Positions 1,144 to 17,900 of a DNA stretch of 64,000 bases are shown in pieces. Source of the DNA: an uncultured Dechloromonas sp. Lineage in GTDB: Bacteria; Pseudomonadota; Gammaproteobacteria; Burkholderiales; Rhodocyclaceae. The stretch covers positions 7,458-71,457 of the forward strand of contig NZ_CAMFKO010000017.1 of NCBI RefSeq assembly GCF_945957265.1, read 5' to 3'. The notes below the pieces were generated by a model. The model saw nothing but the letters and a program-made list of their open reading frames with translations, did no database searches and was not told the DNA's origin. Numbering within the stretch: position 1 is the stretch's first letter; each line of letters opens with the position of its first letter. A program made the translations under genes and the position numbers.

Positions 1144-1147
1144 TGGA

Positions 1148-2501: not shown

Positions 2502-2515
2502 GTCTCTCCATCCTT

Positions 2516-2707: not shown

Positions 2708-2749
2708 TGCTTGCCTCTTGTGATCAAAAATGAGGTTGATGGGTATCGC

Positions 2750-3757
2750 TCAGGCCACCAGGAAGCGCCGGCTGCCGGTTTTGGTGACGGCGTAGCGTTG
2801 CTGCAGATCGGGCTGATCCTTGAGCAGTCGGGTGATATCGAGCCCGACGCTGTCCTTGGCTTTCTTCCAGGTGACGCTGCCGGTTTCGAAATTCGCCTTG
2901 GTGGCACTGCCCATGGCTTGCTGCAGGGTTTGCTTGAGTTGTGCTTCCAGTTTTTCGGCTTCGGCGATGCTTTGCCGAACCGAGAGCCAATCGGCGAAGG
3001 TGGCTGACAGGTTGCGCTCCTCGGTACAGTCGAGCGTCTGACCATCGTCGCCCGGATAGAGGCAACGTAAGGCCAAGTCGGCTGATTCGGTGCCATCGGC
3101 CGGTGGCGGCGTATCGCTCTCGACGTAGTGCCAGAAGTGCCGTTCGAGTTCGATCAATCGGGTAATCAAACGCTCATCGCGTTCGACCCGATGGATTTCG
3201 AGGTGTTGTCCACCAAGCAATACGGCCACATCGGCGGCTTGCTTGCCGGTGACGGCCAGCTGGTGCATGACCTGGAGTTGAACGTATTCAGGTACGCCGT
3301 CCTTCCAGAGCTTTACACCGTTGATACCGGCGGTCTTGCATTCGAGGATTTGTACCTCGCTGGAACCGGTGACTTCGCGGTCAATGTTGGCCAGCATCCA
3401 AGGCAGGCTGGGATCGGGATGCTGCAGGACGGCGTTGATGCGCCGTACCCGATTGCCTGTACGCCGGGTGTAGTGGGCAGCGACGATCGGCTCTAAGATG
3501 TTTCCCCAGTAGGTTGGGTTCTCCTCATCATGCGGATCGACCCTGGGCAAATTGCCATCACGACCGGTCTTCTCCAGCCACAGTTCCAGTTGGCTCTTAT
3601 AGGGATTCAGTCCGCAGGCCGTTGCAGCATCCGAACTGCCAATGCCTTGTTTGCGAACGGCCAGCCAATCGTCACGAGGCAAGTCCTTGGTCTTGACCAG
3701 TTTAAGTGCCGGACGATGTTTGATCGGGATGGCATTGGGTAAGGCGTTGGGTTGCAT
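2750..3757 (-). CDS. YqaJ-like viral recombinase / lambda-type exonuclease
   Basis: GIGSSDAATACGLNPYKSQLELWLEKTG is the YqaJ N-terminal signature. The start was trimmed to the ATG at 3755-3757, which has an AAGGAG RBS. Confidence 0.8.
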   Translation of the reverse strand: MQPNALPNAIPIKHRPALKLVKTKDLPRDDWLAVRKQGIGSSDAATACGLNPYKSQLELWLEKTGRDGNLPRVDPHDEENPTYWGNILEPIVAAHYTRRTGNRVRRINAVLQHPDPSLPWMLANIDREVTGSSEVQILECKTAGINGVKLWKDGVPEYVQLQVMHQLAVTGKQAADVAVLLGGQHLEIHRVERDERLITRLIELERHFWHYVESDTPPPADGTESADLALRCLYPGDDGQTLDCTEERNLSATFADWLSVRQSIAEAEKLEAQLKQTLQQAMGSATKANFETGSVTWKKAKDSVGLDITRLLKDQPDLQQRYAVTKTGSRRFLVA

Positions 3758-3780
3758 GAGTTTGCTCCTTCCAGAAATGC

Positions 3781-3814
3781 AAAATGCCCAGTCCGCCAAT
3801 AAACGGAACTGGGC
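3781..3814 (-). terminator. Rho-independent-type terminator after the DUF932 gene
   Basis: An 8-bp stem TGCCCAGT/ACTGGGCA (3785-3792 and 3807-3814) is followed on the minus strand by TTTTGCATTT. Confidence 0.45.
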
Positions 3815-3856
3815 ATGTGCGAGGGATGAATGGTTAAACGCGGATTCAGGTGACGA

Positions 3857-4825
3857 TCAGGCGACGAGTTGCAGGGCCGTATCGAGAGCGCGTTGCTTGA
3901 GGACGGCCCCCTGGCCGAACCAGGCAGAATCCATGCGGTATTCGGTGCTACGGGCACGGCGTTCGTGATCGACGTACTCCGTCACAGCGTTAAGTAATCC
4001 CCACGCAGTGTTCTTGGCGGCATCAAGTTCAGCCCCCTTGCCTTGTCCGTCGTAGAGGGCTTGCACCCGCTTCAAGGCACGTTCGTTAGCCAGTCCAGCC
4101 GGATCGATGGTGCCGGGCTGGACATCGCACATCACGCGCAGGAAGTAATTCATGGCTTCATGGCTCTTCACTTTGCGTTCGGCCAGTGTCTTCATGCGGT
4201 ACATAAAAGCGTCATACTGGGATACGGCAATACCGAGTTGCTGCTTCACTGCCTGCGGATCGAACCGGGTGCTGTGCGGCACCTTGATCGCCTGACTCGC
4301 ACCATTCACGGCAATGGTCAGTGTGTTGTTGCAGACCACACGGACGGTCGTGGGAGTTGCCGTGGTGGCGAGGGTTCCGTCACATGAAGTGGCCAACAAG
4401 AGGTAACCCCTAACTTGATCGTTACCCTTCAAGGCAGTGGATTGACCGGTCTTGGCAAGCGCCCAGAACTTCTTGCCGCCTTTCAATACACCAGCCGTCT
4501 CCAGCTGGTAGCCGGAAACGGTCGTGAGATCACGGTAGAACTCCAGGACTTCCTTGGGTTGAACCACCTGATAACGTTGCGAGACGACCGACAGGGCTTC
4601 CTTGGTGTCCGAGCGATACAGCACCTTCTGCTCTTCGAAGGAATGAATAGTGCCGAGACTGCCGATGCTGTCGGCCATGAAGCGAACCGGGGACTCCTGG
4701 ATGGTCCAGTCCATGCCGGCGGATTTGGCCCAGACTTCGATGGGTTGTTTGGCCGGAAGACGATTGCCGAGGCCATGCCACGGTTCGGCGCCGACATAGG
4801 CCATTTGTTGGACGAGGTGTGCCAT
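3857..4825 (-). CDS. DUF932-family phage/plasmid-like protein
   Basis: MAHLVQQMAYVGAEPWHGLGN...DWTIQESPVRF matches the DUF932/TIGR03299-type N-terminus. The start was trimmed to the ATG at 4823-4825, which has an AGGAAA RBS. Confidence 0.75.
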   Translation of the reverse strand: MAHLVQQMAYVGAEPWHGLGNRLPAKQPIEVWAKSAGMDWTIQESPVRFMADSIGSLGTIHSFEEQKVLYRSDTKEALSVVSQRYQVVQPKEVLEFYRDLTTVSGYQLETAGVLKGGKKFWALAKTGQSTALKGNDQVRGYLLLATSCDGTLATTATPTTVRVVCNNTLTIAVNGASQAIKVPHSTRFDPQAVKQQLGIAVSQYDAFMYRMKTLAERKVKSHEAMNYFLRVMCDVQPGTIDPAGLANERALKRVQALYDGQGKGAELDAAKNTAWGLLNAVTEYVDHERRARSTEYRMDSAWFGQGAVLKQRALDTALQLVA

Positions 4826-4962
4826 GAGATTTCCTTTCGGGAATGAATGCGCGCAGCCGCTCAACCGGATGCACGGCAGAGACGGGAGGCGTTGAATGAA
4901 TGGGAGGAAAGACGAGAACTGCGATGCCGTCCATTGCAGACGGCAGAGGTCAACCAAGCCGA

Positions 4963-5310
4963 TCAGTACGTGGTCGACTCGGGTGCGGTGAGGCTAAAAC
5001 AGTGGCCGCAAGCAAGGCAGCGGTAGTTATCGAGGATGCGACGGTCGACAAATTCGCCCAATCGGGCACCAGACAGACCGCCGGCAGTACCGCCAACCAC
5101 GGCGCCGAAAAGTGCACCGAGGACGCCGCCGAAGACCATACCTGGCGGACCGGCAACGATTCCGACAGTCATGCCGATTTCGATACCGGACAGGCTGCCG
5201 GTAGCGCCACCAACACAGCCGCCGACCGTGCCGATCAGGCCGGCAGTCTTGCGGGCACGATTGCGAGTGGTGATACGTGCAGAGTGACAGTTTGGGCATT
5301 GAATGTTCAT
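4963..5310 (-). CDS. Zinc-ribbon protein interrupted by a glycine-zipper membrane segment
   Basis: MNIQCPNCHS...GxxxG-rich core (GLIGTVGGCVGGATGSLSGIEIGMTVGIVAGPPGMVFGGVLGALFGAVVGGTAGG)...YRCLACGHCF. A GGAG RBS precedes the ATG at 5308-5310. Confidence 0.6.
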   Translation of the reverse strand: MNIQCPNCHSARITTRNRARKTAGLIGTVGGCVGGATGSLSGIEIGMTVGIVAGPPGMVFGGVLGALFGAVVGGTAGGLSGARLGEFVDRRILDNYRCLACGHCFSLTAPESTTY

Positions 5311-5723
5311 TGTCTGACTCCTGTAGATGAAAAGGACGAACGAAATCAGCGAACGCCATTTCTGGCACTCGCTGATTTGAACGTAATGAGGAGTTAGGTA
5401 CGGAGGCCAGCTGGTTGATTCTGGCCAATCTGCCATGTTTTGCGGCAGACGATCACCTTCTCAAGGAGGTGATATGTGATTGAAAAAAACTAAAATCCAC
5501 AGGATATTGCGTGGGATCACTCAGCATGATCATTTCAAGCCATACATTCCCGGCTCGCAAAACTGGCCTGGTAGATAGTCAGAAAACGCGTGCGCTTCCC
5601 TGCGAAGGAGTGGCATGCAAATACTTCCTGCCCTACTCCACCCCAAGTTATCATGCTGAATTGATTAACAGGTGGTCGGTATAGTGTTGATCGCCACCGG
5701 AGCAACCAAGGAGCAACGGACAA

Positions 5724-5757
5724 TGAAAAACAAAAAAGCCACTCCGAAGAATGGCTT
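5724..5757 (-). terminator. Rho-independent terminator downstream of the tRNA
   Basis: The minus strand reads AAGCCATTCTTCGGAGTGGCTT (stem AAGCCA/TGGCTT, CTTCGG-type loop) followed by TTTTTTGTTTTT. Confidence 0.6.
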
Positions 5758-5773
5758 AAGTGTTTGATTTTAC

Positions 5774-5847
5774 TGGTGCCCCCGAACGGAATCGAACCGC
5801 TACCTGATGATTACAAATCAACTGCACGACCTTCATGCTACGGGGGC
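5774..5847 (-). tRNA. tRNA-Thr (anticodon UGU), atypical
   Basis: I folded the reverse complement GCCCCCGTAGCATGAAGGTCGTGCAGTTGATTTGTAATCATCAGGTAGCGGTTCGATTCCGTTCGGGGGCACCA by hand. It has a 7-bp acceptor stem, a T-arm with a TTCGATT loop, an anticodon loop TTTGTAA and an encoded CCA. Oddities are a T-T mismatch in the anticodon stem and G instead of A at position 14. Confidence 0.6.
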
Positions 5848-5886
5848 CCTTTGCAACGGGCCGCAATTATAGCCTGATCATCGAAC

Positions 5887-7659
5887 ATGAGCACATTGAC
5901 GAATCCATTCGAGATTGCCCGCGAAACACTGCGGCTGCTGGCCGCCCGGCGCATTGCGCCAACTCCGGACAATTACCTGACGCTTTATCACGAGATTTCC
6001 GGCACCAAGGCGACCGCTCCCGGCTTCCCCGACACACAGCTCCGGTCGCTTGCCGCAGCGCTTCCCAGGACATCGCCAGACCAGCTGCGCCTGGCCAGGC
6101 AACTGGACGATGCCGTCAAGGCCGCCAATTGGGATGCATACAAAGGACATCTGGTCGAATTTGTCACGGCCTTATCGAGCAGCCAGAAGCTTGCCTGGTC
6201 CGACCTGATTGCGGACTTGCTGCGCCAGTGGGATGCCAAGCACCAAGGGCTCACGTCGGCACGCAAGCGCGAGTCGCTCGAACACGTCCTGGCCGGCAGT
6301 GGCGCCAATCCGGAAACCTTGTTCAACCGCCTTCAAGGACTACTCAAGTCATGGGGGCAGGGGCGGGATCAGGACAAACCGGAGGCGAGCACGGAAACCG
6401 CTGCCGAGGGCGGCCAGCCCGCCCCCGCAAGCGCGACCATGCCTGTTCAGGTCGAAGATTTACTGCCCGAATTACGCGAACTGTTCGCGTTTACGCTTGA
6501 AACGGCGATTGCCACGCAACTTCTTGAAACGCCGGCCTTATCGGTAGACGCGAAAACGCTGGCGCAGGATATCCGCGCGGCGGTCACGGCCAGCCAGCTT
6601 GCCGAGTTTCTGACGCGCCTGAAGCGCTTCGCCTTCAAACTGGAGTTGCTGGCCGAAGACCAGGCCGAACTGCGCCAAAGCCTGCTGAGCCTGCTCAGAT
6701 TGCTGGTCGAGAACATTACCGAACTGACGCTCGACGACCATTGGCTGCACGGGCAGATCGAGGTCGTGCGGGAAATCATCGGCAAGCCGCTTTCGCAACG
6801 CGCCCTGGACGACGCTGAACGGCGCCTGAAAGAAGTTCTGTTCAAGCAGAGCCAGCTCAAGGCGAGCCTGTTCGAGGCCAAAGAAGCGATCAAGCAGATG
6901 CTGGCCGGTTTTGTCGACCATCTCGCCGACTTTGCCGAAGTCACCTCCGACTACCACGACAAGATCGAAAGCTACGCCGGGAAAATCACGTCAGCCAAGG
7001 ACATCACGGAGTTGGGCGGCGTCCTTGACGAGGTCATGCGCGAGACGCGCGCCGTTCAGATCAACGCCCAGCGATCGCGCGACGAACTTCGCTCCACGCA
7101 AGAGAAGGTCAAGGAGTCCGAGGCTCGCATCCAGGAACTCGAACGAGAACTGGAAGCCACCAGCGACCTGGTGCGCCACGACCAACTCACCGGCGCCCTC
7201 AATCGACGCGGCCTGGAGGAAATATTCTCCAAGGAGTCGGCGCGCGCCAAACGCCACGAAACCCAACTGTGCGTTGCCCTGCTGGACATCGACAACTTCA
7301 AGAAACTGAACGACAGCCTGGGGCACGATGCCGGGGACAAGGCCCTGATTCACCTGGCCAACGTCTGCCGCGAAACCCTGCGCCCCCAGGATACGGTTGC
7401 GCGCTACGGGGGTGAGGAATTCATCATTCTGCTGCCGGACACCCTGATCGACGAAGCCGTCACGGCCCTGACCCGCCTGCAGCGGGAACTAACCAAGAAA
7501 TTCTTCCTGAGCGACAACGAGAAGGTGCTCATCACCTTCAGTGCCGGCGTAACGCCGCTACGCCCCGAAGACGGGCAGCACAGCGTGATCAAGCGTGCCG
7601 ACGAAGCCATGTATCAAGCCAAGCAGACGGGGAAGAACCGTGTGGTGGCGACAAACTGA
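5887..7659 (+). CDS. Diguanylate cyclase (GGDEF domain) with a long helical N-terminal region
   Basis: The active site is RYGGEEFIILL. An RxxD I-site (RPQD) lies 5 residues upstream of it. DQLTGALNRRGL is also present. The coiled-coil-like N-terminus is about 420 aa. Confidence 0.9.
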   Translation: MSTLTNPFEIARETLRLLAARRIAPTPDNYLTLYHEISGTKATAPGFPDTQLRSLAAALPRTSPDQLRLARQLDDAVKAANWDAYKGHLVEFVTALSSSQKLAWSDLIADLLRQWDAKHQGLTSARKRESLEHVLAGSGANPETLFNRLQGLLKSWGQGRDQDKPEASTETAAEGGQPAPASATMPVQVEDLLPELRELFAFTLETAIATQLLETPALSVDAKTLAQDIRAAVTASQLAEFLTRLKRFAFKLELLAEDQAELRQSLLSLLRLLVENITELTLDDHWLHGQIEVVREIIGKPLSQRALDDAERRLKEVLFKQSQLKASLFEAKEAIKQMLAGFVDHLADFAEVTSDYHDKIESYAGKITSAKDITELGGVLDEVMRETRAVQINAQRSRDELRSTQEKVKESEARIQELERELEATSDLVRHDQLTGALNRRGLEEIFSKESARAKRHETQLCVALLDIDNFKKLNDSLGHDAGDKALIHLANVCRETLRPQDTVARYGGEEFIILLPDTLIDEAVTALTRLQRELTKKFFLSDNEKVLITFSAGVTPLRPEDGQHSVIKRADEAMYQAKQTGKNRVVATN

Positions 7660-7689
7660 CACGACAGCAAAAGACTCCCGAGGAACCCT

Positions 7690-8916
7690 ATGCTTGCGCT
7701 CTGCCCGGACTACTATCCGAAATTCCAATGTATCGGGTCGACCTGTGAAGATTCTTGCTGTATCGGCTGGCGGGTCCATCTGGACAAGGCAACTTATCAC
7801 TTTTACAAACAGAACCAGCATCCCAATCTGCGTGAACGCTTCAAGAATACGATTCAGCGAACAGATATAAAGGGCGACACCCAGCATTTTGCCGTCATCG
7901 AGATGGCGGAGAGGGGGCGCTGCCCTTTTCTTGACCCGGACAATCTCTGCGCCATTCATCGCAATCTCGGCAGCACGGCACTCAGCAACGTGTGCGCGAC
8001 ATTCCCGAGGCGGGCGAATCTCAGCGGCAAGCAGCTGGAATACTCGCTATCGCTGGCGTGCCCGGAGGCCGCGCGCCTCGTGCTGCTGCAAAAGGAAGCG
8101 ATGGGGTTTGTCGAGATACCGATCGACACCACCCTGGCAAGTGCCGCCCCCCCGGCCGAACTCTCACCTCACGAAGAACAAAGCAGCCTGCTGCTCAACG
8201 ACCTGCGGGCGCTCATCATCGGCATTCTGCAGTTGCGCGAATTGCCCGTCGATCATCGACTAATCCTGCTGGGCCTGCTGCTCGAGGACTTCGAGGCGGC
8301 ATCCCTGGCCAACGAAGCCCTGCCGCCGGTGTTGCACCGTTACGTCGGATTGCTCGGCGCCCCGGACTTGCTGCGGAATGAACTGGATAAAATCGAGCCC
8401 TGCCTCGCCGTCAAGATTCACCTCGTCGCCCACCTGATCGGCGACATACCGACACCCGCCCATAACATTCGCTTTCGCACCCTGCTGGACGAGGCGGCCC
8501 AAGGCCTGAAATTCGAGTCCTCGCAACACGACGGGCAACATGAGGCCTACGAACGCGACTACCGCCCCTACTTTGAAGCGCACCCCCACATTCTCGAAAA
8601 CTACCTGGTTCACTACGTCATTCACAACCTCTTCCCCGTCGTGCGCACGTCGGTTGTCGTTCAATACCGGGAACTGATCTGCGACTATCTGGCGATCACG
8701 ACCTTGCTGTTCGGACAAGCCGTTTTTCACCGGGGGATGACCGATGCGCTGGCCGTCAAGACGATTCAATCCTACACACGCTTCGCCGGCCACTACTCCC
8801 AGTTCAAGGAGACCGTCGCGCGCACCCTTGAACAGCAGCAGCTATCCGATCTGCGCCGGCTGTTCCAGCTGATCGCTCCCCCCAAATCAAGCCGGGCGCC
8901 AGCGAGCGCTGCATAA
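7690..8916 (+). CDS. fliB: Flagellin lysine-N-methylase FliB
   Basis: Cys-rich N-terminus FQCIGSTCEDSCCIGWRVHLDK...CPFLDPDNLCAIHRNLG...CATFPRR...SLSLACPEAARL. I recognise it as matching Salmonella FliB. Confidence 0.8.
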   Translation: MLALCPDYYPKFQCIGSTCEDSCCIGWRVHLDKATYHFYKQNQHPNLRERFKNTIQRTDIKGDTQHFAVIEMAERGRCPFLDPDNLCAIHRNLGSTALSNVCATFPRRANLSGKQLEYSLSLACPEAARLVLLQKEAMGFVEIPIDTTLASAAPPAELSPHEEQSSLLLNDLRALIIGILQLRELPVDHRLILLGLLLEDFEAASLANEALPPVLHRYVGLLGAPDLLRNELDKIEPCLAVKIHLVAHLIGDIPTPAHNIRFRTLLDEAAQGLKFESSQHDGQHEAYERDYRPYFEAHPHILENYLVHYVIHNLFPVVRTSVVVQYRELICDYLAITTLLFGQAVFHRGMTDALAVKTIQSYTRFAGHYSQFKETVARTLEQQQLSDLRRLFQLIAPPKSSRAPASAA

Positions 8917-8947
8917 TCCCTGCGACACTTTGCCGAGGCCAACCCTG

Positions 8948-10246
8948 ATGCCCACAATCTACGTAGGAATGACCGTCGATGTTCTGCACCACGGACATAT
9001 CAACATCATCACGGAAGCCAGCAAACACGGCGAACTCATCGTCGGCCTGCTGACCGACGCGGCCATCGCCAATCACAAGCGACTCCCTTACCTGAGCTAC
9101 GAGCATCGCAAACAGATTCTGCAGAATATCAATGGCGTAGCACAGGTTGTTCCGCAGAACGAATGGGATTACGCCCCCAACCTGCGCAAGTACAAACCCG
9201 ATTTGATGATGCATGGCGACGATTGGCACGAAGGCCCGCTGGCCCCCTATCGCGAGCGCGCATTGGCCGCACTGGCGGAATACGGCGGGCGCCTGATCGA
9301 AATCCCATACACCCCGGGCGTCTCGTCGAAAGCCATCATTGCCCAGATGCAGGCGCTCGGCACCTCACCGGAAATACGTCGCCAGACGCTCAAACGCCTG
9401 CTGGGCGCGAAACCGATTTCCCGCTTCATCGAAGCGCACAACCCCATTTCCGCCCTGCTCGCGGAACATGTGAGCATCCAGCGTGACGGCGCGATCCGCC
9501 AGTTCGACGGCTTCTGGTCGAGTTCCCTGACCGACTCGACAGTCCGGGGGAAGCCGGATATCGAAGCGGTCGACATCACCAGCCGACTCTCCAACATCAA
9601 CGACATCTTCGACGTCACCACCAAGCCGCTGATCATGGACGCCGACACGGGCGGCAAACCGGAGCACTTCGAACTGCACGTCCGCAGCATGGAACGACTG
9701 GGCATCTCGGCGACGATCATCGAAGACAAGACCGGGCTGAAGAAAAATTCCCTGTTCGGAAACGATGTCGTACAAAGCCAGGACGACATCCCCCACTTCT
9801 GCGAAAAGATCCGCGCCGGACGAGCCGCCCGCGTCAGCGAAGATTTCATGGTCATCGCCCGCATTGAAAGCCTGATCCTGGAGCGCGGCATGGATGACGC
9901 CATTGCGCGCGCCCAGGCCTATGTCGAGGCCGGCGCCGACGGCATCATGATCCACAGCCGGCGCAAGACCCCGGACGAGGTTTTCGAATTCGCCCGCCGT
10001 TTCCGCCAGGATTTCCCCAGCGTGCCGCTGGTATCCGTACCCACCAGCTATAACAGCACCACCGAAGAACAGCTGGCGGAGCATGGATTCAACATCGTCA
10101 TCTACGCCAACCACCTGCTGCGAGCCGCCTATCCGGCCATGGAAAAGGTCGCCCGACAAATTCTGGAAAACGGCAGATCGGCCGAAACCGACCGTGACCT
10201 GATGGACATCAACGCCATCCTCGAACTGATCCCGGGAACCCGCTGA
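8948..10246 (+). CDS. Bifunctional cytidylyltransferase / phosphoenolpyruvate mutase (PepM)
   Basis: The N-terminal HxGH nucleotidyltransferase motif (VDVLHHGH) is at 8987-8998. The C-terminal domain carries the PepM hallmark EDKX5NS (EDKTGLKKNS, nt 9722-9751). The start was trimmed to ATG 8948. Confidence 0.85.
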   Translation: MPTIYVGMTVDVLHHGHINIITEASKHGELIVGLLTDAAIANHKRLPYLSYEHRKQILQNINGVAQVVPQNEWDYAPNLRKYKPDLMMHGDDWHEGPLAPYRERALAALAEYGGRLIEIPYTPGVSSKAIIAQMQALGTSPEIRRQTLKRLLGAKPISRFIEAHNPISALLAEHVSIQRDGAIRQFDGFWSSSLTDSTVRGKPDIEAVDITSRLSNINDIFDVTTKPLIMDADTGGKPEHFELHVRSMERLGISATIIEDKTGLKKNSLFGNDVVQSQDDIPHFCEKIRAGRAARVSEDFMVIARIESLILERGMDDAIARAQAYVEAGADGIMIHSRRKTPDEVFEFARRFRQDFPSVPLVSVPTSYNSTTEEQLAEHGFNIVIYANHLLRAAYPAMEKVARQILENGRSAETDRDLMDINAILELIPGTR

Positions 10247-11394
10247 TGATAGACCCGAAGGACTTCGCCGCCGCACTGCGCGATGCCGGCATCCAATTCA
10301 TCACCGGCGTCCCCGACTCCCTGCTCAAGGACATCTGTGCCCACCTCACGGCAAGCCTGCCGGCGGAAGCGCACCGGATCGCCACCAACGAAGGCTCGGC
10401 TGTCGGCCTCGCCATCGGGCATTACCTGGCGACGGGGAATCCGGCCATGGTCTATATGCAGAACTCCGGGCTGGGCAATATCGTCAACCCGGTCGCCTCC
10501 CTTGCCGACCCGCTCATCTATGGCATTCCGATGCTGCTGATGGTGGGCTGGCGCGGAGAAATGCTTCCGGACGGCAAGCAGATCAACGACGAACCCCAAC
10601 ACGTCAAGCAAGGCCGGATCACGCTGACGCAACTCGAAACGCTGGGCATTCCCTATCGCATCGTTGATGCCCAAACGACGGACATCCAGGGCTGCATCGC
10701 GGCAATGCGCGACCAATCGGTGCAACGTAACGGCCCTGTTGCCATGGTCGTCCGCAAACAGACTTTCGCCCCCTGCGCCCTGCCCGCCCGGAATGAAGCT
10801 GCCGAGCAGCCCAGCCGCGAAGAGACCATTCAGACGGTGGTCGACATACTCCCCCCCGATGCGGCCATCGTTGCCACGACCGGCATGGCATCCCGGGAGC
10901 TCTTCGAATACCGGCGCGCGCTCGACAGCGGCCACCAGCGCGACTTCCTGACCGTCGGCGGCATGGGGCATGCCTCGCAGATCGCCGTCGGCATTGCCCA
11001 GGCCCGACCCGATCGCCGGGTCGTCTGCCTGGATGGCGACGGCGCCATCCTGATGCACCTGGGCGGCCTGGCCCTTGCCGCACGGCAAGGCAACCTGCTC
11101 CACCTGGTCATCAACAACGGCGCTCACGACTCGGTGGGCGGGCAACCGACACTGGCCCGCGAACTCGACCTCGCCGCCATCGCCCTGGCGCTGGGCTACA
11201 CGCACGTCGAGTCGGTTGGCAGCCGTGCCGAATTGGGCGATGCACTGCGGCGCGCCCTGGCTTCCGCGGGCAGCGCCTTCGTCGAGGTGCGCTGCCGCAC
11301 CGGCGCCCGCGCCAACCTCGGGCGCCCCGACATACCGCCCTCCGACAACAAGCGGCACTTCATGAATTTTCTGGCAGGAACGATGGATGAATAA
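10246..11394 (+). CDS. Phosphonopyruvate decarboxylase (thiamine-diphosphate dependent)
   Basis: The N-terminus is FITGVPDSLLKD. The TPP motif LDGDGAILMHLGG...VINNGAHDSVGGQ is present. The start overlaps the pepM stop (TGATG). Confidence 0.85.
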   Translation: MIDPKDFAAALRDAGIQFITGVPDSLLKDICAHLTASLPAEAHRIATNEGSAVGLAIGHYLATGNPAMVYMQNSGLGNIVNPVASLADPLIYGIPMLLMVGWRGEMLPDGKQINDEPQHVKQGRITLTQLETLGIPYRIVDAQTTDIQGCIAAMRDQSVQRNGPVAMVVRKQTFAPCALPARNEAAEQPSREETIQTVVDILPPDAAIVATTGMASRELFEYRRALDSGHQRDFLTVGGMGHASQIAVGIAQARPDRRVVCLDGDGAILMHLGGLALAARQGNLLHLVINNGAHDSVGGQPTLARELDLAAIALALGYTHVESVGSRAELGDALRRALASAGSAFVEVRCRTGARANLGRPDIPPSDNKRHFMNFLAGTMDE

Positions 11395-12388
11395 GTCCGA
11401 CGAGTCGATTGCCGGTCTGGTCGCCCGACGCAATGCCGAAAAATGCCTGTTCACCGCCGGCCCGGCTAGCCTGCTCACGGAAAACCTGACCGGGCTCCGC
11501 CCCTGTTTCGGTCGGGGAGACGCCGATTACGCCTCGCTGGAAACGACGGTGCTGGATGCGTTGAAGGCGCTGTCCGGGCATCGTGAAATTGCCCGCCTGC
11601 AGGGCTCGGCCAGCCTGGCGCTCGAACTGGCCACGCTCAACTTCCTCGCCGGGCGCGTCCTGATCGTCTCCTCCGGCTACTACTCCGACCGTCTGCAAGC
11701 CATGGCCGAGGCGGCGCAACGCCAAACCGGACGCATCACGCACATCGGCAGCATTGCATGGAGCCAACTGCCGGAACTCAACGAAGGCTTCGACTGGCTG
11801 GTCGCTTGTTACACCGAAACCAGCGTCGGGCTGCGCCTGCCGATGGCCCAGCTCCTTGCCGCCAAGCAGCGTGCCGGCGCCCGGATGCTGCTCGATGCCA
11901 CGGCCTCGATCGGCCTGGAGACGGGGCACGAGCACGCGGACGTCATCGCCTACTCGTCGTGCAAGGGCCTGTTCGGCCTTACCGGTGCCGCCTTCATCGC
12001 CTTCAACGAGCACCCGGGCTATGCGCCGGATTCGTTCTATCTCAATCTCGACAACCACCTCGAGCGGCGGATGACCGGCCCCTACCATGCCATTGCCTCG
12101 CTGGCCGACGTATTGCCGAGGCATGCCGATTTCCGGTCGGCCGTCATGCAGAACAAGGCCGCCTTCATGGCCCGGATGCGCCCCTACCTGACGCGCCAGG
12201 AAGACCAGCAACCGGCGCTGTGCACCCAGATCAGCGCCACGATCACCTCGACGGACCCCAGAGCCATCCTATATGCTCCGCGAGGCAACCAGGGCGGCAG
12301 CGTGGTATGCCACCTCGGCGAAGCCCACCTTGGCGCGGCCGCGCGCGGAGACATTCTGAATCTTCTGGAGCTCGATCCAACACCATGA
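11387..12388 (+). CDS. Class V aminotransferase, 2-aminoethylphosphonate:pyruvate transaminase-like
   Basis: It has a PLP-type fold with the SSCKGL lysine motif. It sits directly after pepM and ppd, with an 8-nt overlap with ppd. Confidence 0.7.
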   Translation: MNKSDESIAGLVARRNAEKCLFTAGPASLLTENLTGLRPCFGRGDADYASLETTVLDALKALSGHREIARLQGSASLALELATLNFLAGRVLIVSSGYYSDRLQAMAEAAQRQTGRITHIGSIAWSQLPELNEGFDWLVACYTETSVGLRLPMAQLLAAKQRAGARMLLDATASIGLETGHEHADVIAYSSCKGLFGLTGAAFIAFNEHPGYAPDSFYLNLDNHLERRMTGPYHAIASLADVLPRHADFRSAVMQNKAAFMARMRPYLTRQEDQQPALCTQISATITSTDPRAILYAPRGNQGGSVVCHLGEAHLGAAARGDILNLLELDPTP

Positions 12389-12813
12389 CCGCAGGACAAG
12401 CCCCCTCGCATCAAAGGCGGATCATGGTCGACATGTCCGCCACGCTGCTGCACCACGGTCACATTCGCCTGCTCAAGGCAGCCAAGCAACTGGGCACCGT
12501 GGTCGTCGCGCTGACCACCGACGACGAGATCCGCAAGAAAAAGGGCTACGACCCCGAGCTCAGCTATGCCGAACGCAAGGAAATCCTCGAAGCAATCCGC
12601 TATGTCGACGAGGTCGTCCCATGCAACTGGCTGATCGAGAACGAGCTGCTCGAACGCCATCGGATCGACCTGCTGGTTCATGGACACGACAACGCCAACC
12701 CCATTCCAGACGACAAGCTCGTCATCCTGCCGCGCACCGAAGGCATCAGCAGCAGCGAGCTGCGCCAGCGGGTCGTCCATGCCCTGGCACAAATCGGCGA
12801 GAACCCGCGATGA
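12385..12813 (+). CDS. TagD-like cytidylyltransferase (glycerol-3-phosphate cytidylyltransferase family)
   Basis: The motifs LLHHGH, RYVDEVVP and LPRTEGISSSELR closely follow B. subtilis TagD. There is an ATGA overlap with the upstream gene. The long track ORF 11758-12813 is an out-of-frame extension. Confidence 0.75.
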   Translation: MTAGQAPSHQRRIMVDMSATLLHHGHIRLLKAAKQLGTVVVALTTDDEIRKKKGYDPELSYAERKEILEAIRYVDEVVPCNWLIENELLERHRIDLLVHGHDNANPIPDDKLVILPRTEGISSSELRQRVVHALAQIGENPR

Positions 12814-13538
12814 GTCATGAAAACTGGCAATCCATCTGGGCAAGGCGCGGCACCTCGGATGCAAGCGGGTTATCGCTCGAAGAGCTGCTGAGACTGGACG
12901 GATTCGATTCGGGCGCCGCCTGCATCGACCCACAGGATTGGCGCAGCTATGCCCAAGACCTGGCGAACCGCCTGAACATCCGCGAAGGCCAATCCGTCTT
13001 CGAAATCGGCTGCGGGGCAGGCGCCTTTCTCGCCGCGCTGTCCGAAACGCGATCGATCGTCGTTGGCGGCATCGACTATGCCGAAGGGCTCATCGGAAAC
13101 GCCCGTCAAGCCCTCCCGCAGGGCTCCTTTCAGGTTGGCGACGCCGAAGCGCTTGAGCCGGCGCCGCCTGCGCACCACGTCATCGCCAACAGCGTGTTTC
13201 AGTACTTTCCCCTTGGCAAAGCCGGAAACATCCTGCAGCGGATGCTGAGCAAAGCCGCGATGACAGTCGCCGTCCTGGACATTCCCAACCGCGAGACGCA
13301 GGCGGAATGCGAAGCCGTCCGTCGCGCGGCCCTGCCGGAGGCCGAGTACGAGCGCAAGTATGCGGGGCTGGAGCACACCTACTTCGACCGCGACTGGTTT
13401 GCCTGCCAGGTGAATCCGGATGAATGGCGCTGCGAAACAATCGATGGCTTCATCCCCAACTACACCCAGAACCAGTTTCGCTTCGCCGCCCTCTACCGAC
13501 GCGTCACCCCCCTGATCACCCCCACGGAACGCATCTGA
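12810..13538 (+). CDS. Class I SAM-dependent methyltransferase
   Basis: Motif I is VFEIGCGAGAFL. There is an ATGA overlap with the upstream gene. Confidence 0.75.
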   Translation: MSHENWQSIWARRGTSDASGLSLEELLRLDGFDSGAACIDPQDWRSYAQDLANRLNIREGQSVFEIGCGAGAFLAALSETRSIVVGGIDYAEGLIGNARQALPQGSFQVGDAEALEPAPPAHHVIANSVFQYFPLGKAGNILQRMLSKAAMTVAVLDIPNRETQAECEAVRRAALPEAEYERKYAGLEHTYFDRDWFACQVNPDEWRCETIDGFIPNYTQNQFRFAALYRRVTPLITPTERI

Positions 13539-13543
13539 CCCCC

Positions 13544-14950
13544 ATGCCCGCTTCTCTCGCCTCGTCACCCAGACAATTCACGTTTTTCCATACCGATGGC
13601 TGCGAACGACAGACGGTGGAGCCGATCGCCGACGAGGCGGCACGACGCGGCTACGCCGTTCGCTTCACGGAAGACATGGGGGAACGAGCCGACATAGGCG
13701 TCTATTGCCAACACGCCTGCCGGCCCAATGCCAATTTTTCCGTCATCACCCTGCACGACCTCGCGCAACGGCATGACATCTGGCCACGCTTCTGGCAGAC
13801 CGAGCCGTGGAACGACTTCGATATCGGCCTGGTGCCCGGTGAAACCTGGGTAGATCGCTGGCAATCGCAGGCCGACTTTCCGGTTGCACGCCCAAGACTT
13901 GGCCTCTTCAATCTCGGCTGGCCGAAAGCCGATCTGGTCTTTCGCAGCCGCACTCGCTTTGCCGAGGCGGCCGCCGAACTACGCCAGAAGCTGGGCTTGC
14001 AGCACGAACACTCCGTGCTGTATGCCCCGTCCTGGGAAAACGACGGCAAGCAGGACGATTTCGTCAAAGCCTTGAGCGAGTTGCCCGTCAACCTGTTGCT
14101 CAAGCAGGCCCCGTGGTCCAATGACTATCCGATGGTCCTCGAAAGCATACGGGCCATGAACGCCCTTCATCGGGGTTGCGCACCCAATGTCCACATCATC
14201 GACCCCGATGTGAGCATCATGTATTGCCTTGGCCTGGCCGACGTTCTCGTCTCGGACGAATCCAGCGTCCTCACGGAGGCCCTGTTGCTCGACGTGCCGG
14301 GTGTCGCGGTTGTCGACTGGCTGATTCCCGACCGCATTCCTTCGCGCTTTGCCGAAGTGCCCTACGATTACGTCATCAAGACGCAGAAAGCCGATTTGCG
14401 GCAAACCGTCCAGGAAATTCTGGCTGCGCCCGCCGCCTACCGCGCAGCCACCGCCCAGGTGAAACACCAGCAATTCAGCAACCTCGGGCAAAGTGCAAAA
14501 GCCATTGTCGACACTATCGAGGCCGCCCTTGGCGGCCATCCGCTTCCCTATCCGCCTTGCGCACCGCGCGTCGACCTGGATCGCCAGCAGTTTCGACTGG
14601 CGGAAGCCCTGATCCAGCAGGGAAAAGCAAGCGAAGGACTGCAGCAACTCTTCGCCATGGCCAATGCCGGGACCGCATGCTGGGAAGTGTTCAACTATCT
14701 TGGCTTGCTGGCCTACGATGAAGGCAAGATCGACGATGCCGCGCTTTTCCTGGAAGTCGCTGCCGACCGCGCCCCCGATCCACGAGCACCGCTGGCCAAC
14801 CTCATCGACCTCCAGTGCGGCCGACAAGACCGTGAGAAGGCACTCGCGGCACTCGGCGCCTACATGCAGCAAACCGCCACCTCGCCGCAGCTCTTCAAGG
14901 CCATCCAGGTCTTCCTGCATATGCTGAACGCCCCGTCGGCAGCCCACTAG
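13544..14950 (+). CDS. TagF-like CDP-alcohol phosphotransferase (Glyphos_transf family) with a C-terminal TPR region
   Basis: VLYAPSWEND and DVLVSDESSVLTEAL resemble the YAPTWR / DYSS motifs of teichoic-acid glycerophosphotransferases. The C-terminal ~110 aa are TPR-like (WEVFNYLGLLAYDEGKIDDAALFLEVA...). Confidence 0.65.
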   Translation: MPASLASSPRQFTFFHTDGCERQTVEPIADEAARRGYAVRFTEDMGERADIGVYCQHACRPNANFSVITLHDLAQRHDIWPRFWQTEPWNDFDIGLVPGETWVDRWQSQADFPVARPRLGLFNLGWPKADLVFRSRTRFAEAAAELRQKLGLQHEHSVLYAPSWENDGKQDDFVKALSELPVNLLLKQAPWSNDYPMVLESIRAMNALHRGCAPNVHIIDPDVSIMYCLGLADVLVSDESSVLTEALLLDVPGVAVVDWLIPDRIPSRFAEVPYDYVIKTQKADLRQTVQEILAAPAAYRAATAQVKHQQFSNLGQSAKAIVDTIEAALGGHPLPYPPCAPRVDLDRQQFRLAEALIQQGKASEGLQQLFAMANAGTACWEVFNYLGLLAYDEGKIDDAALFLEVAADRAPDPRAPLANLIDLQCGRQDREKALAALGAYMQQTATSPQLFKAIQVFLHMLNAPSAAH

Positions 14951-14994
14951 CAGCCTGACAGCCAACAACCTACCAGCCCTCATCCGAATCCGCC

Positions 14995-17900
14995 ATGAAG
15001 CATACCTACGACACCCAGAGGAATCTGTGGACCCGCCCCGACTTTTCCGGGATCGCCTATTCAGACGGCTCCGAAATCGAGGCCCGCTTGTTGCAGGTCA
15101 TGCGCTCGGTCAAGGACAAATCCGTATTCTCCATTGAGTTGGCGTCGCATATCAGTGACTGGGCAAGCGAATACCACCTGACGGCCAGCCGGCACTGCCT
15201 GATGCGGCCGATCCCGTTCGAGGCAGGCCAGAGCGTGCTGGAACTCGGTTGCGGCTGCGGTGCCATTACCCGCCACCTGGGGGAGCTCGGCCTGAATGTG
15301 ACGGCCGTGGAAGGGGGTGCCAAGCGTGCCGAAATTGCTGCCGAACGCGTGCGCGACCTTCCCGATGTCAAAGTGGTTTTCGACGACCTGGTGCAATTCC
15401 AGTCCGACGAAAAATTCGACTGGGTCACATTGATCGGCGTTCTCGAGTATTCACCGATGTTCGCCCCCGGAGACGACCCGGTCAGCGCCTACCTCAAGCA
15501 GGCGCTTTCCTACCTGAAGCCGGGCGGCCGACTGGTCATCGCCATCGAGAACCAGTTGGGGTTGAAGTACTTCAACGGTTGCGGCGAGGACCACGTCAAC
15601 CTCCCGTTTTTTGGCCCCCAGGGCCTGTATCAACGCGGAGGACCGGTCACTTTCGGCAAGCGGCAGCTGAAAAAACGTTTGCTCGATATCGGCTTTTCCG
15701 GGGTGGATTTCTTCTACCCCTACCCGGACTACAAGATTCCTCAGGCGATCATCTCCGAATCCGCCTTCATGACGCCGGAATTCAAGGTCGCCGACATCTT
15801 GTTGCGCATGGATTCCAGAGACTATACCGGACGTCCCTTCCGTCTCTTTTCCGAGCAACTGGTTGCCCGCGAACTGGAGGACAACGGCGTCCTCTCGGAT
15901 TTCGCCAATTCCTTCCTGCTCATCGCCCGTCAGACCGATCCGGTTGCTGCGCCCCCCGACGAAGCCATTGCCTGGTGCTTCAGCCTCAACCGTTTGACGC
16001 GCTACAAGACGGAAACGACCTTTCACGTATCCGGCGAACGGATCGAAGTCAGAAAAAACCGCGCCGCCCCTCCGCACCTGAGGCAATCGGTCCCCCCCGG
16101 CAAGATCACGCACCACCTGGGCAACGCGCTTTATCATCGGGGGCGGCTGCAAGCCTGGCACCTCCTCAAGGCCAAGTTCCGCCCCTACAACGAGGCCGAA
16201 CTGGCTGCCGCCTTCTTGCCGCATGCCCGCTACCTGCTTGATCGAAGCGAGCAAACCCCGGGGAGCAACCCGGCGCTTCTGGAGTCGTGGCTAACCGCCG
16301 GCACACTGCTCGACCTGACGCCTTTCAACGTCATCGAAACCAGCAACGGCCCACAAGAAATCGACATGGAATGGGAGGTGCCCGGACAAGTCCCAACCGG
16401 ATGGGTTCTTCTGCGCAGCATAGCCAATTCCCTGATGCTCGGCATGACGCCGGACGAAGCAGAACAGACGACCCTGGGCGGACTGACCCAAAAGATTCTG
16501 GCCGGACTGGGAATGCAGTACGCTCCGTCAAGCTTCAGGCAGTGGGCCCGGCTTGAGCAGGAATTCATCGAATCCGTTTGCGGCGTAAAAACCCGCCTGC
16601 TCCCCCCCGACATCTCGATCTCCCAACTCAGCTCCTACCGCAAGCTCGACATCGACCGCTGGGGCACCCAGCATTCCACGCCAGGCGGCCGAACTGCACC
16701 GCCCAAACAGATTGTCGCATCGGATGTGCAGTCGCCCGACCCCTTGACGCCAACCGGACATGTCGCGGTAAGCGCCGTGGTCATGTGCTACCAGCAACAT
16801 GACATCGTTCAGCGCACCCTGCAAAGCCTGCTGACCCAGGACTATCCGATTGACGAAATCATCGTCAGCGACGACTGCTCGACGGACGGAACGATCGAGA
16901 TGATTCTGGCGATGGAGCCACAGCTGCGCCAGCGCTGCAACAATCTGCTCATCCGCCAAAATCCGAAGAACCTGGGCATCGTCGGACACTTCAACGTGCT
17001 TTTCGAACAGGCCCGCAACGAATTCATCGTCTATTTTGCCGGTGACGACATTTCGGAACCGCAGCGTGTCCGCCGCCTCGCCGAACACTTCCGCAGCCAG
17101 GATCGTCCGCGCTATTACCTGATCCACAGCGATGTCCGGATGATCGATGACGCCGACAATCCCGGTGACGTCCTCAAACCACCGGTCATCACCGGTCGCC
17201 TCGACCTCATGGAAACGGCACTGTCGGCGAGCCTTCACATTGGCGCCACCGCCGCATTTACCCGTGCGCTGTGGGCCGACTACGGAGGCTTCGAGGAACG
17301 CTGGGTATACGAAGATCTGATCCTGGGCTGGCGCGCCGCCATGCACGGCCATTATCACTATCTTCCGGAGCCCCTCCTGCGCTACCGCGCGGGTGGCGTC
17401 ACCTTTAAGAACATGTCGCCTGAAAAACAGCGGCGGCATCTGCTCTCGCTGTATCGCCAGCGCCTCATCGACACGAACGTCGCCGAAGCTGCAGGCCTGA
17501 GAACCGACTTGGGCGACGTACGCTACCGTCTTTCGGTCAACCTCAATGCGCTGGAATCGTCGCAAGCGGTCTCCGAATTCGATCTTTCCTACGTCCAGTG
17601 GCGGGCCGCGCGACAAATCCTGCCCGAGGACTTGCGCCAGATAGGCCAGGAGCTGTCGACGCTGGCGGACAACGCCCCCCGATTCCAGATCGTGATGCGC
17701 CTGCCGGCCGATTCGACCCCGGCCCTGGCCGACACGCTGGACGCGCTGAACGGTCAATATTATCCCCATTGGCGCGTCGACCTGGTCACAACCCTGCCCG
17801 CCCCGGCAGGGATGGATGCAGTTGCCTGTATTGGATGGCACACGATCGATCCAGCCGTCGATGCCGCCCAGGCAATCAACGCGATTGTCTCGGCCCAACC

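Follow-up and report, generated by a model that had tools for sequence, protein, structure and literature searches.

A Fom1-type cytidylyltransferase-PEP mutase fusion heads a putative phosphonate branch in a flagellin glycosylation island

The window (the whole stretch of 64,000 nucleotides of an uncultured Dechloromonas sp. analyzed here) contains a variable gene island between fliB and fliC. The second gene of this island encodes a fusion of a cytidylyltransferase and a PEP mutase (PepM). The following features were assigned.

7690 to 8916, + strand: fliB, flagellin lysine-N-methylase, left border of the variable island
8948 to 10246, + strand: bifunctional cytidylyltransferase-PEP mutase, 432 amino acids; cytidylyltransferase domain at approximately 8975-9343 (residues 10-132), PepM domain at approximately 9389-10240 (residues 148-431)
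10246 to 11394, + strand: phosphonopyruvate decarboxylase (Ppd), TIGR03297 with 458.3 bits (cutoff 312.5)
11387 to 12388, + strand: divergent class-V aminotransferase, 333 amino acids, likely a PnAA-to-AEP transaminase
12385 to 12813, + strand: CT2, free HxGH cytidylyltransferase, 142 amino acids, PF01467 with 62.5 bits
12810 to 13538, + strand: class I SAM methyltransferase, 242 amino acids, PF13649 and PF08241
13544 to 14950, + strand: TagF-like transferase of the CDP-alcohol type, 468 amino acids including a TPR-like tail, candidate phosphonyl transferase
14995 to 20259, + strand: multidomain protein of 1754 amino acids, Pfam and NCBIfam matches
20294 to 20322, + strand: candidate sigma-28-like promoter upstream of fliC, found by eye (TAAAGTTC, 11 bases, GTCGTTAA)
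20419 to 21114, + strand: fliC, short flagellin of 231 amino acids, flagellin models, presumed acceptor
21621 to 22991, + strand: fliD, right border; NF005955 and TIGR00208 cover the fliD/fliS pair
23058 to 23465, + strand: fliS, right border of the locus together with fliD

The eight genes from fliB to the gene of the 1754-residue protein (7690-20259) are connected by overlapping stop and start codons or separated by gaps of at most 45 bases. The last gene of this array stops 160 bases short of fliC. The fusion gene and the Ppd gene overlap at stop and start, which couples PEP mutase to Ppd, and the start codons of the genes for CT2 and the methyltransferase each overlap the stop of the preceding gene (ATGA). 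The three open reading frames in three different frames between 11387 and 13538 were also considered as broken or frameshifted genes. This was rejected: with the overlaps just described they are read as intact genes for the aminotransferase, CT2 and the methyltransferase, and full-length homologues of all three occur at other loci in unchanged order. A truncated aminotransferase was rejected as well, since its full-length homologues at five genome loci align across residues 1-331 with 60-65% identity and the PLP lysine aligns.

The fliB product was recognized by NF038110 (277 bits, cutoff 85) and is 58% identical to the protein at the same position in G017, the closest relative (FliD 94% and FliC 93.5% identical). 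The central stretch of the window flagellin (residues ~117-165) is rich in Ser and Thr. With FliB upstream and fliC, fliD, fliS and the fli/flg operons downstream, the cell-surface or flagellar context given in the initial annotation was confirmed. In G017, GGDEF-fliB and fliC flank the same slot, which is filled there with an NDP-sugar/radical-SAM/GT1 cassette. The glycosyltransferase core is retained: residues 853-1753 of the 1754-residue protein are 52% identical to a glycosyltransferase of 1237 amino acids adjoining fliC in G017. We therefore read the fliB-fliC array as a hypervariable island for flagellin glycosylation in a form specific to this species. Contigs of the metatranscriptome run X15 lie on the genes for FliB, the methyltransferase, the TagF-like transferase and the giant glycosyltransferase, on the PepM domain and, at much greater depth, on fliC; contigs of an RNA library are no proof of transcription.

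The reading frame of the fusion gene is open from 8930 to 10246, and translation from the ATG at 8948 yields the N-terminus MPTIYVGM. Residues 10-132 matched the Pfam family PF01467 (CTP_transf_like, 55.6 bits, cutoff 21) and residues 150-406 matched PF13714 (PEP_mutase, 194 bits). The NCBIfam PEP mutase model TIGR02320 scored 415.1 bits on residues 148-431, which exceeds its equivalog cutoff of 319.55. The top solved structure for residues 2-131 was the cytidylyltransferase domain of Fom1 (5x3d, E 6.6e-47), with approximately 54% identity (70 of 130 positions, counted by hand on the identity line of the alignment). Matching PEP mutase structures were 5unc (E 2e-43) and 1m1b (E 2e-38). The two motifs quoted in the initial annotation, VDVLHHGH (HHGH at residues 14-17) and EDKTGLKKNS, were both found. 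The latter fits the Ppm motif EDKxxxxxNS, which separates Ppm from paralogues of the isocitrate-lyase family and is defined as Ppm-specific by Rice et al. 2019 (PMC6697681). Both domains are present in 120 of 120 homologues among the matches listed (425-500 amino acids, mostly 432). At the loci of fusion homologues HxGH is conserved in all 36 detected N-terminal domains and EDKxxxxxNS in 38 of 39 C-terminal domains. For the folds the sequence evidence is decisive. At this level, the claim of a Fom1-type HxGH cytidylyltransferase and a true PEP mutase in one gene is confirmed, and the protein is, judged by its sequence, an ordinary member of the large Fom1-type cytidylyltransferase-PEP mutase family.

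Fom1 from the fosfomycin pathway of Streptomyces wedmorensis and the fusion both consist of an N-terminal HxGH cytidylyltransferase and a PEP mutase in a chain of about 430 amino acids. Their N-terminal domains align from end to end and share the second motif YTPG(V/I)SS and an insert absent from CT2, whereas the first motif reads HPGH in Fom1 and HHGH in the fusion. Fom1-type clusters contain an alcohol dehydrogenase in the place occupied here by the aminotransferase. None of FomC (Fe-ADH), Fom3 (radical SAM/cobalamin methyltransferase), Fom4 and FomD was found among the eight genes from 7690 to 20259. According to Rice et al. 2019 (PMC6697681) Fom1 acts on HEP; its pathway yields an antibiotic, whereas the predicted output here is the decoration of a glycoconjugate. 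The location of a Fom1-like architecture outside an antibiotic cluster was thus found as annotated, but it is not novel, since such fusions have already been described as common. In that paper, 59.5% of 1485 non-redundant Ppm proteins are fused, 23.6% to PF01467, the PF01467 fusions occur mostly in cell-surface clusters, and a role of PF01467-Ppm in cell-surface tailoring is discussed. These phosphonyl-tailoring (Pnt) fusions share with our protein the two Pfam domains, EDKxxxxxNS, an adjacent Ppd and surface-glycan partners. Some clusters of a later inventory (Microb Genom 2022, PMC8942020) contain two cytidylyltransferases, one of them Ppm-fused. The enzymes characterized by Rice and by the inventory authors are PF12804 PntCs and differ from the PF01467 domain investigated here. 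The stem "flagell" is absent from the main texts of PMC6697681 and PMC8942020, and TagF-like transferases are not mentioned in the text of PMC6697681. The fusion protein per se offers nothing new; the interest lies in its flagellar-island setting.

For the complete cassette we propose the following route. The PepM domain, whose family membership is seen directly, would convert PEP to phosphonopyruvate, and Ppd would pull this reaction forward and yield phosphonoacetaldehyde. The divergent aminotransferase would then form 2-aminoethylphosphonate (AEP). It reached 55 bits with TIGR03301, far below the AEP-transaminase cutoff of 361, and its closest solved structures are the AEP-pyruvate transaminases 7e7g (E 2.3e-10) and 1m32, with which its PLP lysine aligns. 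The HxGH cytidylyltransferases are predicted to produce the CMP-phosphonate. CT2 contains the motifs HHGH, RYVDEV and RTEGISSS, and its closest structures are an ethanolamine-phosphate cytidylyltransferase (3elb, E 1e-20) followed by TagD (1coz, E 2e-20), whose substrates are phosphoethanolamine and glycerol phosphate, respectively. The SAM methyltransferase would probably N-methylate the CMP-bound phosphonate. This step is assigned only by analogy with FtaC and its substrate CDP-threonine, since the methyltransferase is generic: its solved relatives are of a general kind, with phosphoethanolamine N-methyltransferases among the weak matches.

The TagF-like enzyme may attach the phosphonyl group to one of the hydroxyls on the flagellin O-glycan. 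Its PF04464 score of 25.4 bits lies barely above the cutoff of 22.1, and the alignment with the TagF-like polymerase Cps3D (8qoy, E 3.5e-7) spans LYAPSW and SDESS. The enzyme, encoded within the array at a distance of 5.5 kb upstream of fliC, fits the Fta-type description of a TagF-like transferase that lacks the classical CDP-alcohol motif. The O-glycan itself would be built on flagellin by the giant glycosyltransferase, i.e. the 1754-residue protein, in which residues ~1-530 form a methyltransferase module, residues ~590-800 a GT2 domain and residues 853-1753 a core of GT2 and GT1-like parts. The N-terminal methyltransferase module recurs beside TagF-like genes at other loci. As deduced from these sequences, it is probable (about 0.6) that the fusion heads a phosphonate cassette through which CMP-activated, probably N-methylated AEP is delivered to the flagellin glycan, a phosphonate counterpart of the Fta pathway of C. 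difficile.

FtaABCD of C. difficile and PA1088-1091 of P. aeruginosa, which belong to the type A and b-type post-glycosylation modification of flagellin, lie beside fliC like the cassette described here. In the Fta preprint (bioRxiv 10.64898/2026.02.12.704994) FtaC is a CDP-threonine N-methyltransferase and FtaD is a TagF-like transferase working on GlcNAc-FliC. The likeness concerns the kinds of genes and their logic: a cytidylyltransferase to provide a CDP- or CMP-linked head group, a class I SAM methyltransferase of small size to N-methylate it and a TagF-like transferase to place it on the sugar of flagellin. The transferase-glycosyltransferase fusion PA1091 resembles that of the relative L076 (see below). 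The head group of the Fta system is phosphothreonine, whereas for our cassette we predict a phosphonate that arises through PepM, Ppd and the aminotransferase, and the cassette contains two cytidylyltransferases and two methyltransferase modules. An FtaA-like gene for the formation of phosphothreonine was not found in the island, which carries PepM, Ppd and aminotransferase genes instead. Consequently, the island is a variant of the Fta-type system and not a member of it. AEP itself was detected on the type A glycan of C. difficile FliC (PMC8861647), and according to that paper it is a minor variant of unexplained origin in an organism without pepM. In contrast, the flagellar island described here itself includes the biosynthetic genes. 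The C. difficile case shows that a flagellin O-glycan can carry AEP.

The gene order fusion, Ppd, aminotransferase, CT2, methyltransferase is retained at 45-79% identity in genomes of Fibrobacteria, Verrucomicrobiota, Methyloglobulus and Methylophilus and in metagenome contigs. Vertical inheritance within the genus was rejected for the genomes searched, since a fusion orthologue was found in none of 40 relatives and a TagF-like orthologue in none of 60 other genomes of the genus. In the class, TagF-like orthologues were found in one of 400 other genomes. Thirty-five metagenome loci carry such an orthologue, 19 of them with a PepM gene, while the remainder are mostly short contigs. Flagellar genes occur at 12 of the 35, and these 12 loci represent four lineages (90% clustering), in addition to the window. 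In Methylophilus methylotrophus DSM 46235 (L018) the same cassette adjoins fliC-flaG-fliD-fliS-fliT. At the locus L076 a gene for a PepM-PF12804 fusion is joined by genes for Ppd, an aminotransferase, a free PF12804 enzyme and a methyltransferase and by one that unites TagF-like, methyltransferase and glycosyltransferase domains, with fliC coming next; it is the same logic realized with another nucleotidyltransferase family. Rheinheimera soli and Agathobaculum desmolans contain HEP-type or other variants. We tentatively propose, at slightly less than even odds, that the PepM fusion, Ppd, aminotransferase, free cytidylyltransferase, methyltransferase and TagF-like transferase form a portable phosphonate module which adds N-methylated aminoethylphosphonate to the filament. 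This module would reside in the flagellin glycosylation islands of several unrelated bacteria, namely the window organism, Methylophilus methylotrophus and several uncultured lineages.

The presence of two cytidylyltransferases bears on the suggestion of the initial annotation that C-P bond formation and CMP activation, as first and last steps, are physically coupled. The architectural part of this suggestion holds, but the inference of coupling is weak for several reasons. CMP activation is not the last step, because the methyltransferase and the TagF-like transferase come after it in the operon, and a second, free HxGH cytidylyltransferase directly follows the aminotransferase. Moreover, the partner of the fused enzyme is an Fe-alcohol dehydrogenase (HEP route, as in Fom1), with no second PF01467 cytidylyltransferase, at 24 of 39 loci. 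The free CT2 follows the aminotransferase at all six loci with this aminotransferase and at none of the 24 Fe-alcohol dehydrogenase loci. As the six loci form one clade (67-78% identity), this contrast corresponds approximately to a single evolutionary event and not to 30 independent ones. Ppd and the aminotransferase, both separate enzymes, act between the two fused activities, and thus nothing points to channelling. Most likely, the fusion reflects co-expression and stoichiometry and not channelling between first and last steps.

Within this clade the fused N-terminal domain (67-72% identity) equals the mutase domain (74-78%) in its degree of conservation and is therefore clearly still functional in some way. 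By its position directly after the aminotransferase, CT2 is the better candidate for AEP activation. We slightly favor an assignment in which CT2 activates AEP or methyl-AEP for the methyltransferase and the transferase, while the fused domain has a second specificity, e.g. for HEP or the unmethylated form. A principal role of the fused domain in AEP activation appears unlikely, and a need for both enzymes on different substrates a little less likely again. A role of the fused domain as the cytidylyltransferase for AEP or the final phosphonate could be combined with an unrelated CT2, producing for instance CDP-glycerol for the TagF-like enzyme. The identity of the fused domain to a Fom1 domain that cytidylylates a phosphonate agrees with this, as does the lack of another PF01467 enzyme at most CT-PepM loci; TagD is the second-best solved relative of CT2, and a TagF-family gene lies two genes on. 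However, the loci L014 and L019 contain CT2 and the aminotransferase without a TagF-like gene detected in the flanks fetched, which ties CT2 to the phosphonate module and not to TagF. In addition, a non-homologous free PF12804 enzyme occupies the same slot between aminotransferase and methyltransferase in L076, the TagF-like family tracks PepM cassettes, and no glycerol-3-phosphate-related gene was seen. We consider this combination doubtful.

Alternatively, the target of the cassette might be a lipid or a surface polymer other than flagellin (LPS, capsule or EPS), and its location between fliB and fliC would then be incidental. Close copies are indeed found near genes for polysaccharide export or flippases, i.e. 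Wza/Wzz in L014, ABC-2/Wzt in L017 and a flippase in both L015 and G449, so that the target must be set by the context and not by the cassette. The copy in L015 has a CDP-alcohol phosphatidyltransferase downstream, and the Atlas clusters nearest to the glycosyltransferase core are auto-named only "glycosyltransferase" or "O-antigen biosynthesis protein". In the window, however, the context is flagellar: the array is packed together with fliB and ends just before fliC, and no flippase, Wzx/Wzy or export gene was found among the eight island genes (7690-20259). Furthermore, G017 fills the same slot with a different glycan cassette and keeps the glycosyltransferase core, and the cassette lies beside fliC in five lineages. 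Hence another target is improbable, and flagellin remains our preferred acceptor. A diffusible, fosfomycin-type phosphonate natural product, which the Fom1-like architecture of the first enzyme might suggest, is very improbable, because the array contains no Fe-ADH, cobalamin/radical-SAM methyltransferase, epoxidase, ATP-grasp, NRPS or exporter gene and the partner genes encode transferases and glycosyltransferases.

An assembly error or frameshift that created the fusion or its placement, named in the initial annotation as a possible refutation, has a negligible probability even though the genome is a draft of 71 contigs with 91% completeness: contigs from three other studies are gap-free across the reading frame, the fliB junction and the fliC junction (X8 record 25 spans 8105-10511, X4 record 10 9203-10224 and X5 record 18 8980-9520), no indels are listed between 8948 and 10246 against contigs of other public runs, the architecture is common to the homologues, and the metagenome contig L079 is 86-93% identical over aminotransferase, CT2 and TagF-like transferase and 71% over the methyltransferase.

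The literature search for work connecting genes of phosphonate biosynthesis with the glycosylation of flagellin yielded the C. difficile AEP paper only, and that for a CMP-AEP methyltransferase phospholipid papers only. A report of a cluster of this kind was not found; Supplemental table S1 of the Fta preprint, on species with partial fta clusters, may bear on this. The island joins phosphonate surface tailoring and post-glycosylation modification of flagellin, which are kept apart in the literature searched. It is a possible genetic source for the modification of flagellin with AEP, so far just an unexplained minor species in C. difficile. The rare TagF-like family becomes a named candidate for the uncharacterized transfer from CMP-phosphonate to glycan, and the cassette offers a clean test of the role of a PepM-fused cytidylyltransferase in the presence of a second one. 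Since Methylophilus methylotrophus DSM 46235 is a cultured and harmless strain and carries the same island, the prediction can be checked by mass spectrometry of its flagellin. If the portable module exists as proposed, the pairs of one fused plus one free enzyme (PF01467 or PF12804) would mean two distinct cytidylylations, and consequently the PepM-fused domain would not be the maker of the final donor. The CMP-phosphonate:glycan transferase that is still missing would then have its first family of candidates, and bacteria their first phosphonylated glycoprotein with a defined genetic basis.

The reading frame 8930-10246 is open throughout, and translation from the ATG at 8948 yields a protein of 432 residues with the N-terminus MPTIYVGM. 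Pfam assigned residues 10-132 to the cytidylyltransferase-like family PF01467 (55.6 bits) and residues 150-406 to the PEP-mutase domain PF13714 (194 bits), and the NCBIfam PEP-mutase equivalog scored 415.1 bits (cutoff 319.55). The motifs VDVLHHGH and EDKTGLKKNS were both present. The initial annotation had described one ORF combining an HxGH cytidylyltransferase with a PEP mutase, and this description was confirmed. The alignment to Fom1 which it proposed was also obtained: the top solved-structure match to residues 2-131 was the Fom1 cytidylyltransferase domain (5x3d, E 6.6e-47, about 54% identity counted from the alignment). The C-terminal part resembled phosphonopyruvate hydrolase and two PEP mutases (E 1e-43 to 2e-38). 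A search of a large protein collection returned at least 8000 homologues at E 1e-3 or better, and all 120 homologues listed carried both Pfam domains (425-500 residues, mostly 432; identity 72-97%). Gap-free contigs from public sequencing runs of three other studies covered the ORF and its junctions (run X8 record 25, 8105-10511; X4 record 10, 9203-10224; X5 record 17, 8146-9004, and record 18, 8980-9520), and no indels within 8948-10246 were listed among them. Because of these contigs and the two-domain homologues, a frameshift or assembly error, the possibility raised beforehand against a single gene, is excluded.

The fusion lies in a tightly packed gene array (7690-20259; overlaps or gaps of at most 45 bases) with the following members.

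7690-8916: fliB, flagellin lysine methylase
8948-10246: fused cytidylyltransferase-PEP mutase (CT-PepM; Pfam, NCBIfam, solved structures)
10246-11394: phosphonopyruvate decarboxylase (Ppd; TIGR03297, 458 bits)
11387-12388: divergent class-V aminotransferase (closest solved relatives AEP transaminases, PLP lysine aligned)
12385-12813: CT2, second, free HxGH cytidylyltransferase (PF01467, 62.5 bits; HHGH, RYVDEV, RTEGISSS)
12810-13538: class I SAM methyltransferase
13544-14950: TagF-like transferase (PF04464, 25.4 bits; 8qoy, E 3.5e-7, with LYAPSW and SDESS in the alignment)
14995-20259: giant protein of 1754 residues (methyltransferase module, two GT2 domains, GT1-like end)

The closest solved relatives of CT2 are ethanolamine-phosphate cytidylyltransferase and TagD. 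Frameshifts were considered for the three overlapping frames at 11387-13538 and rejected; these are three genes with ATGA overlaps, all conserved elsewhere. The array is followed by fliC (231 residues, Ser/Thr-rich centre), fliD, fliS and the fli and flg operons, and X8 record 32 (18506-20543) joins the giant glycosyltransferase gene to fliC. About 100 bases 5' of fliC lies a putative promoter of the sigma-28 (FliA) type, TAAAGTTC-N11-GTCGTTAA (20294-20322). In the metatranscriptome X15 the fliC contig (20312-21200) had a word depth of about 214 versus about 2-11 on the cassette genes; such depths cannot rank expression, and flagellins of other organisms map there too. The flagellar region also contains two genes with a FliK (hook-length control) C-terminal domain (23802-24962 and 34534-35643) and a YcgR-like flagellar brake gene (25319-26113). 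Directly upstream of fliB a GGDEF diguanylate cyclase is encoded (5887-7659). Further left, the minus strand of 1-5850 carries genes for a Gp3-like recombination directionality factor (1148-2089), a YqaJ/lambda-exonuclease-like protein (2750-3799) and a DUF932/TIGR03299 protein (3857-4957); tRNA-Thr(tgt) (5774-5847, minus strand) adjoins the end of these phage or integrative-element genes. The arrangement resembles a mobile element that has inserted at a tRNA immediately to the left of the flagellar region.

The initial interpretation is partly supported. The Fom1-like architecture and its non-antibiotic setting, both pointed out initially, stand, but the architecture is not new, such fusions having been described as common. 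In the survey by Rice et al. 2019 (PMC6697681), which covers 1485 non-redundant PEP mutases with EDKxxxxxNS, 59.5% are joined to additional domains: 33.0% to PF12804, 23.6% to PF01467, with Fom1 as example, and about 2.8-2.9% to both, with 42 triple fusions listed. The authors argue that phosphonate tailoring of the cell surface follows, as its dominant logic, nucleotidyl activation. A 2022 inventory (PMC8942020) names gene-cluster families with PF01467 fusions and records that some clusters have a pair of cytidylyltransferases, of which one is fused to the mutase. Our genome scan found CT-PepM in 38 further loci from many phyla including archaea. The protein is a further member of a known family. 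In an Aestuariivirga MAG (8976-14622), CT-PepM (73% identical) and Ppd form a minimal pair flanked by truB and priA; the 10 kb on each side yielded no aminotransferase, dehydrogenase or transferase. In genome G449 two CT-PepM copies (55% identical; contigs C24 and C4) are each cut at residue 334 by the contig end, which suggests a repeat left unresolved by the assembler, and a TagF-like gene lies at another contig end.

A parallel for the late steps is type A flagellin modification of C. difficile. According to a 2026 preprint (10.64898/2026.02.12.704994), CDP-threonine is an in vivo intermediate of this pathway, FtaC N-methylates the CDP-bound threonine and the TagF-like FtaD moves the CDP-activated head group to GlcNAc-FliC. 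P. aeruginosa PA1088-1091 is described there and in PMC11833859 as acting alike, with transferase and glycosyltransferase fused. Beside fliC the window likewise encodes these three types of late enzyme, with PepM, Ppd and an aminotransferase in place of the phosphothreonine source. 2-AEP was detected on the C. difficile flagellin glycan, the species being reported to lack pepM (PMC8861647). In the proposed pathway an AEP-type phosphonate would be made via PepM, Ppd and the aminotransferase, and the TagF-like enzyme would deliver it from CMP-phosphonate onto the flagellin O-glycan. Beyond the family assignments, we infer that the product is most likely a flagellin O-glycan with AEP, probably N-methylated.

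In order to assign the two cytidylyltransferases the 38 loci and the window were classed with tblastn probes. In 24 of the 39 loci an Fe-alcohol dehydrogenase follows Ppd, as in the HEP route of Fom1/FomC, and the probes detected a free PF01467 enzyme in none of these (0/24). The window-type aminotransferase occurs in six loci with CT2 directly after it in 6/6, but these form one clade and the contrast with the dehydrogenase loci equals about a single evolutionary event. Metagenome contig L076 (292-12081) contains a PF12804 version of the island: PepM with a C-terminal NTP_transf_3 domain, Ppd, Aminotran_5, a free NTP_transf_3 and a methyltransferase, then a 1774-residue TagF-like/methyltransferase/GT2 fusion directly upstream of fliC, fliD and fliS. 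Because of the 6/6 versus 0/24 contrast, this layout and the triple fusions, the free cytidylyltransferase looks like the step feeding methyltransferase and transferase. We put at roughly 55% the reading that CT2 activates AEP or methyl-AEP and the fused domain has a second role. That the fused domain is the main activator is rather unlikely, and that both enzymes are needed, for different substrates, slightly less likely still. In the aminotransferase clade the fused N-domain is still under selection: it is 67-72% identical versus 74-78% for the mutase domain, and HHGH is kept. It differs from CT2 by an insert of about 14 residues and by YTPGVSS where CT2 has RTEGISSS. We do not favour the suggestion that the first and last steps are coupled through the fusion: the second cytidylyltransferase occupies the AEP-activating position, the steps between the two fused activities belong to two separate enzymes, and methylation and transfer come after cytidylylation.

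The closest relative, G017, shares FliD (94% identical) and FliC (93.5%). Its slot between GGDEF-fliB and fliC encodes NDP-sugar enzymes, a DegT aminotransferase, three radical-SAM proteins, a GT1, an FkbM methyltransferase and a 1237-residue glycosyltransferase, whose last approximately 900 residues share 52% identity with residues 853-1753 of the giant protein. The pattern is that of a hypervariable flagellin glycosylation island, the core transferase conserved and the tailoring cassette swapped. One of the radical-SAM proteins of the G017 island (C1:223100-243000) has a SPASM domain and a 717-residue protein gave no Pfam match at E<=1e-5. The island also encodes dTDP-sugar enzymes, DegT and FkbM, and represents a distinct, uncharacterised flagellin glycan pathway. 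No orthologue of the fusion was found in 40 relatives searched (24 of the same genus, 16 of the same order), and none of the TagF-like gene in 60 genomes of the genus; the latter occurred in only a single genome among 400 others from the class.

Methylophilus methylotrophus DSM 46235 has the same six-gene cassette back to back with fliC-flaG-fliD-fliS-fliT, then a giant TPR-GT41-methyltransferase protein. A scan with the TagF-like alignment gave 35 metagenome loci, 19 of them with a PepM gene, usually in the order CT-PepM, Ppd, aminotransferase, CT2, methyltransferase, TagF-like, methyltransferase module. Flagellar genes were present in 12 of the 35. Clustering of the TagF-like proteins at 90% gave 18 clusters in total and placed these 12 in four lineages in addition to the window, many other clusters being on contigs too short to judge. 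In Rheinheimera soli (7297-21279) HEP-type CT-PepM, Ppd and Fe-alcohol dehydrogenase are flanked by a methyltransferase-TagF-like fusion, with a PF12804 nucleotidyltransferase, HAD hydrolase, methyltransferase, LicD and Maf flagellin glycosyltransferase, then fliS and fliD. Agathobaculum desmolans ATCC 43058 (8925-14651) encodes a radical SAM protein, a free cytidylyltransferase of the Fom1 type (49% identity to the N-domain of the fusion at 8948-10246), CT-PepM and Ppd, with a flagellin gene about 600 bases downstream and APS-kinase-like and PHP-domain genes further along; it is a Firmicute flagellar locus with different phosphonate chemistry. Nor is the cassette confined to flagella; close copies also occur among Wza/Wzz, ABC-2/Wzt or flippase genes.

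The literature searched, which lay outside subscription journals and preprint supplements, yielded no description of flagellin glycosylation islands that contain a phosphonate cassette with a TagF-like transferase, and 'flagell' has 0 occurrences in the main texts of the two phosphonate surveys (PMC6697681, PMC8942020). We rate the system as a variant both of Pnt tailoring and of Fta-type modification, each already known.
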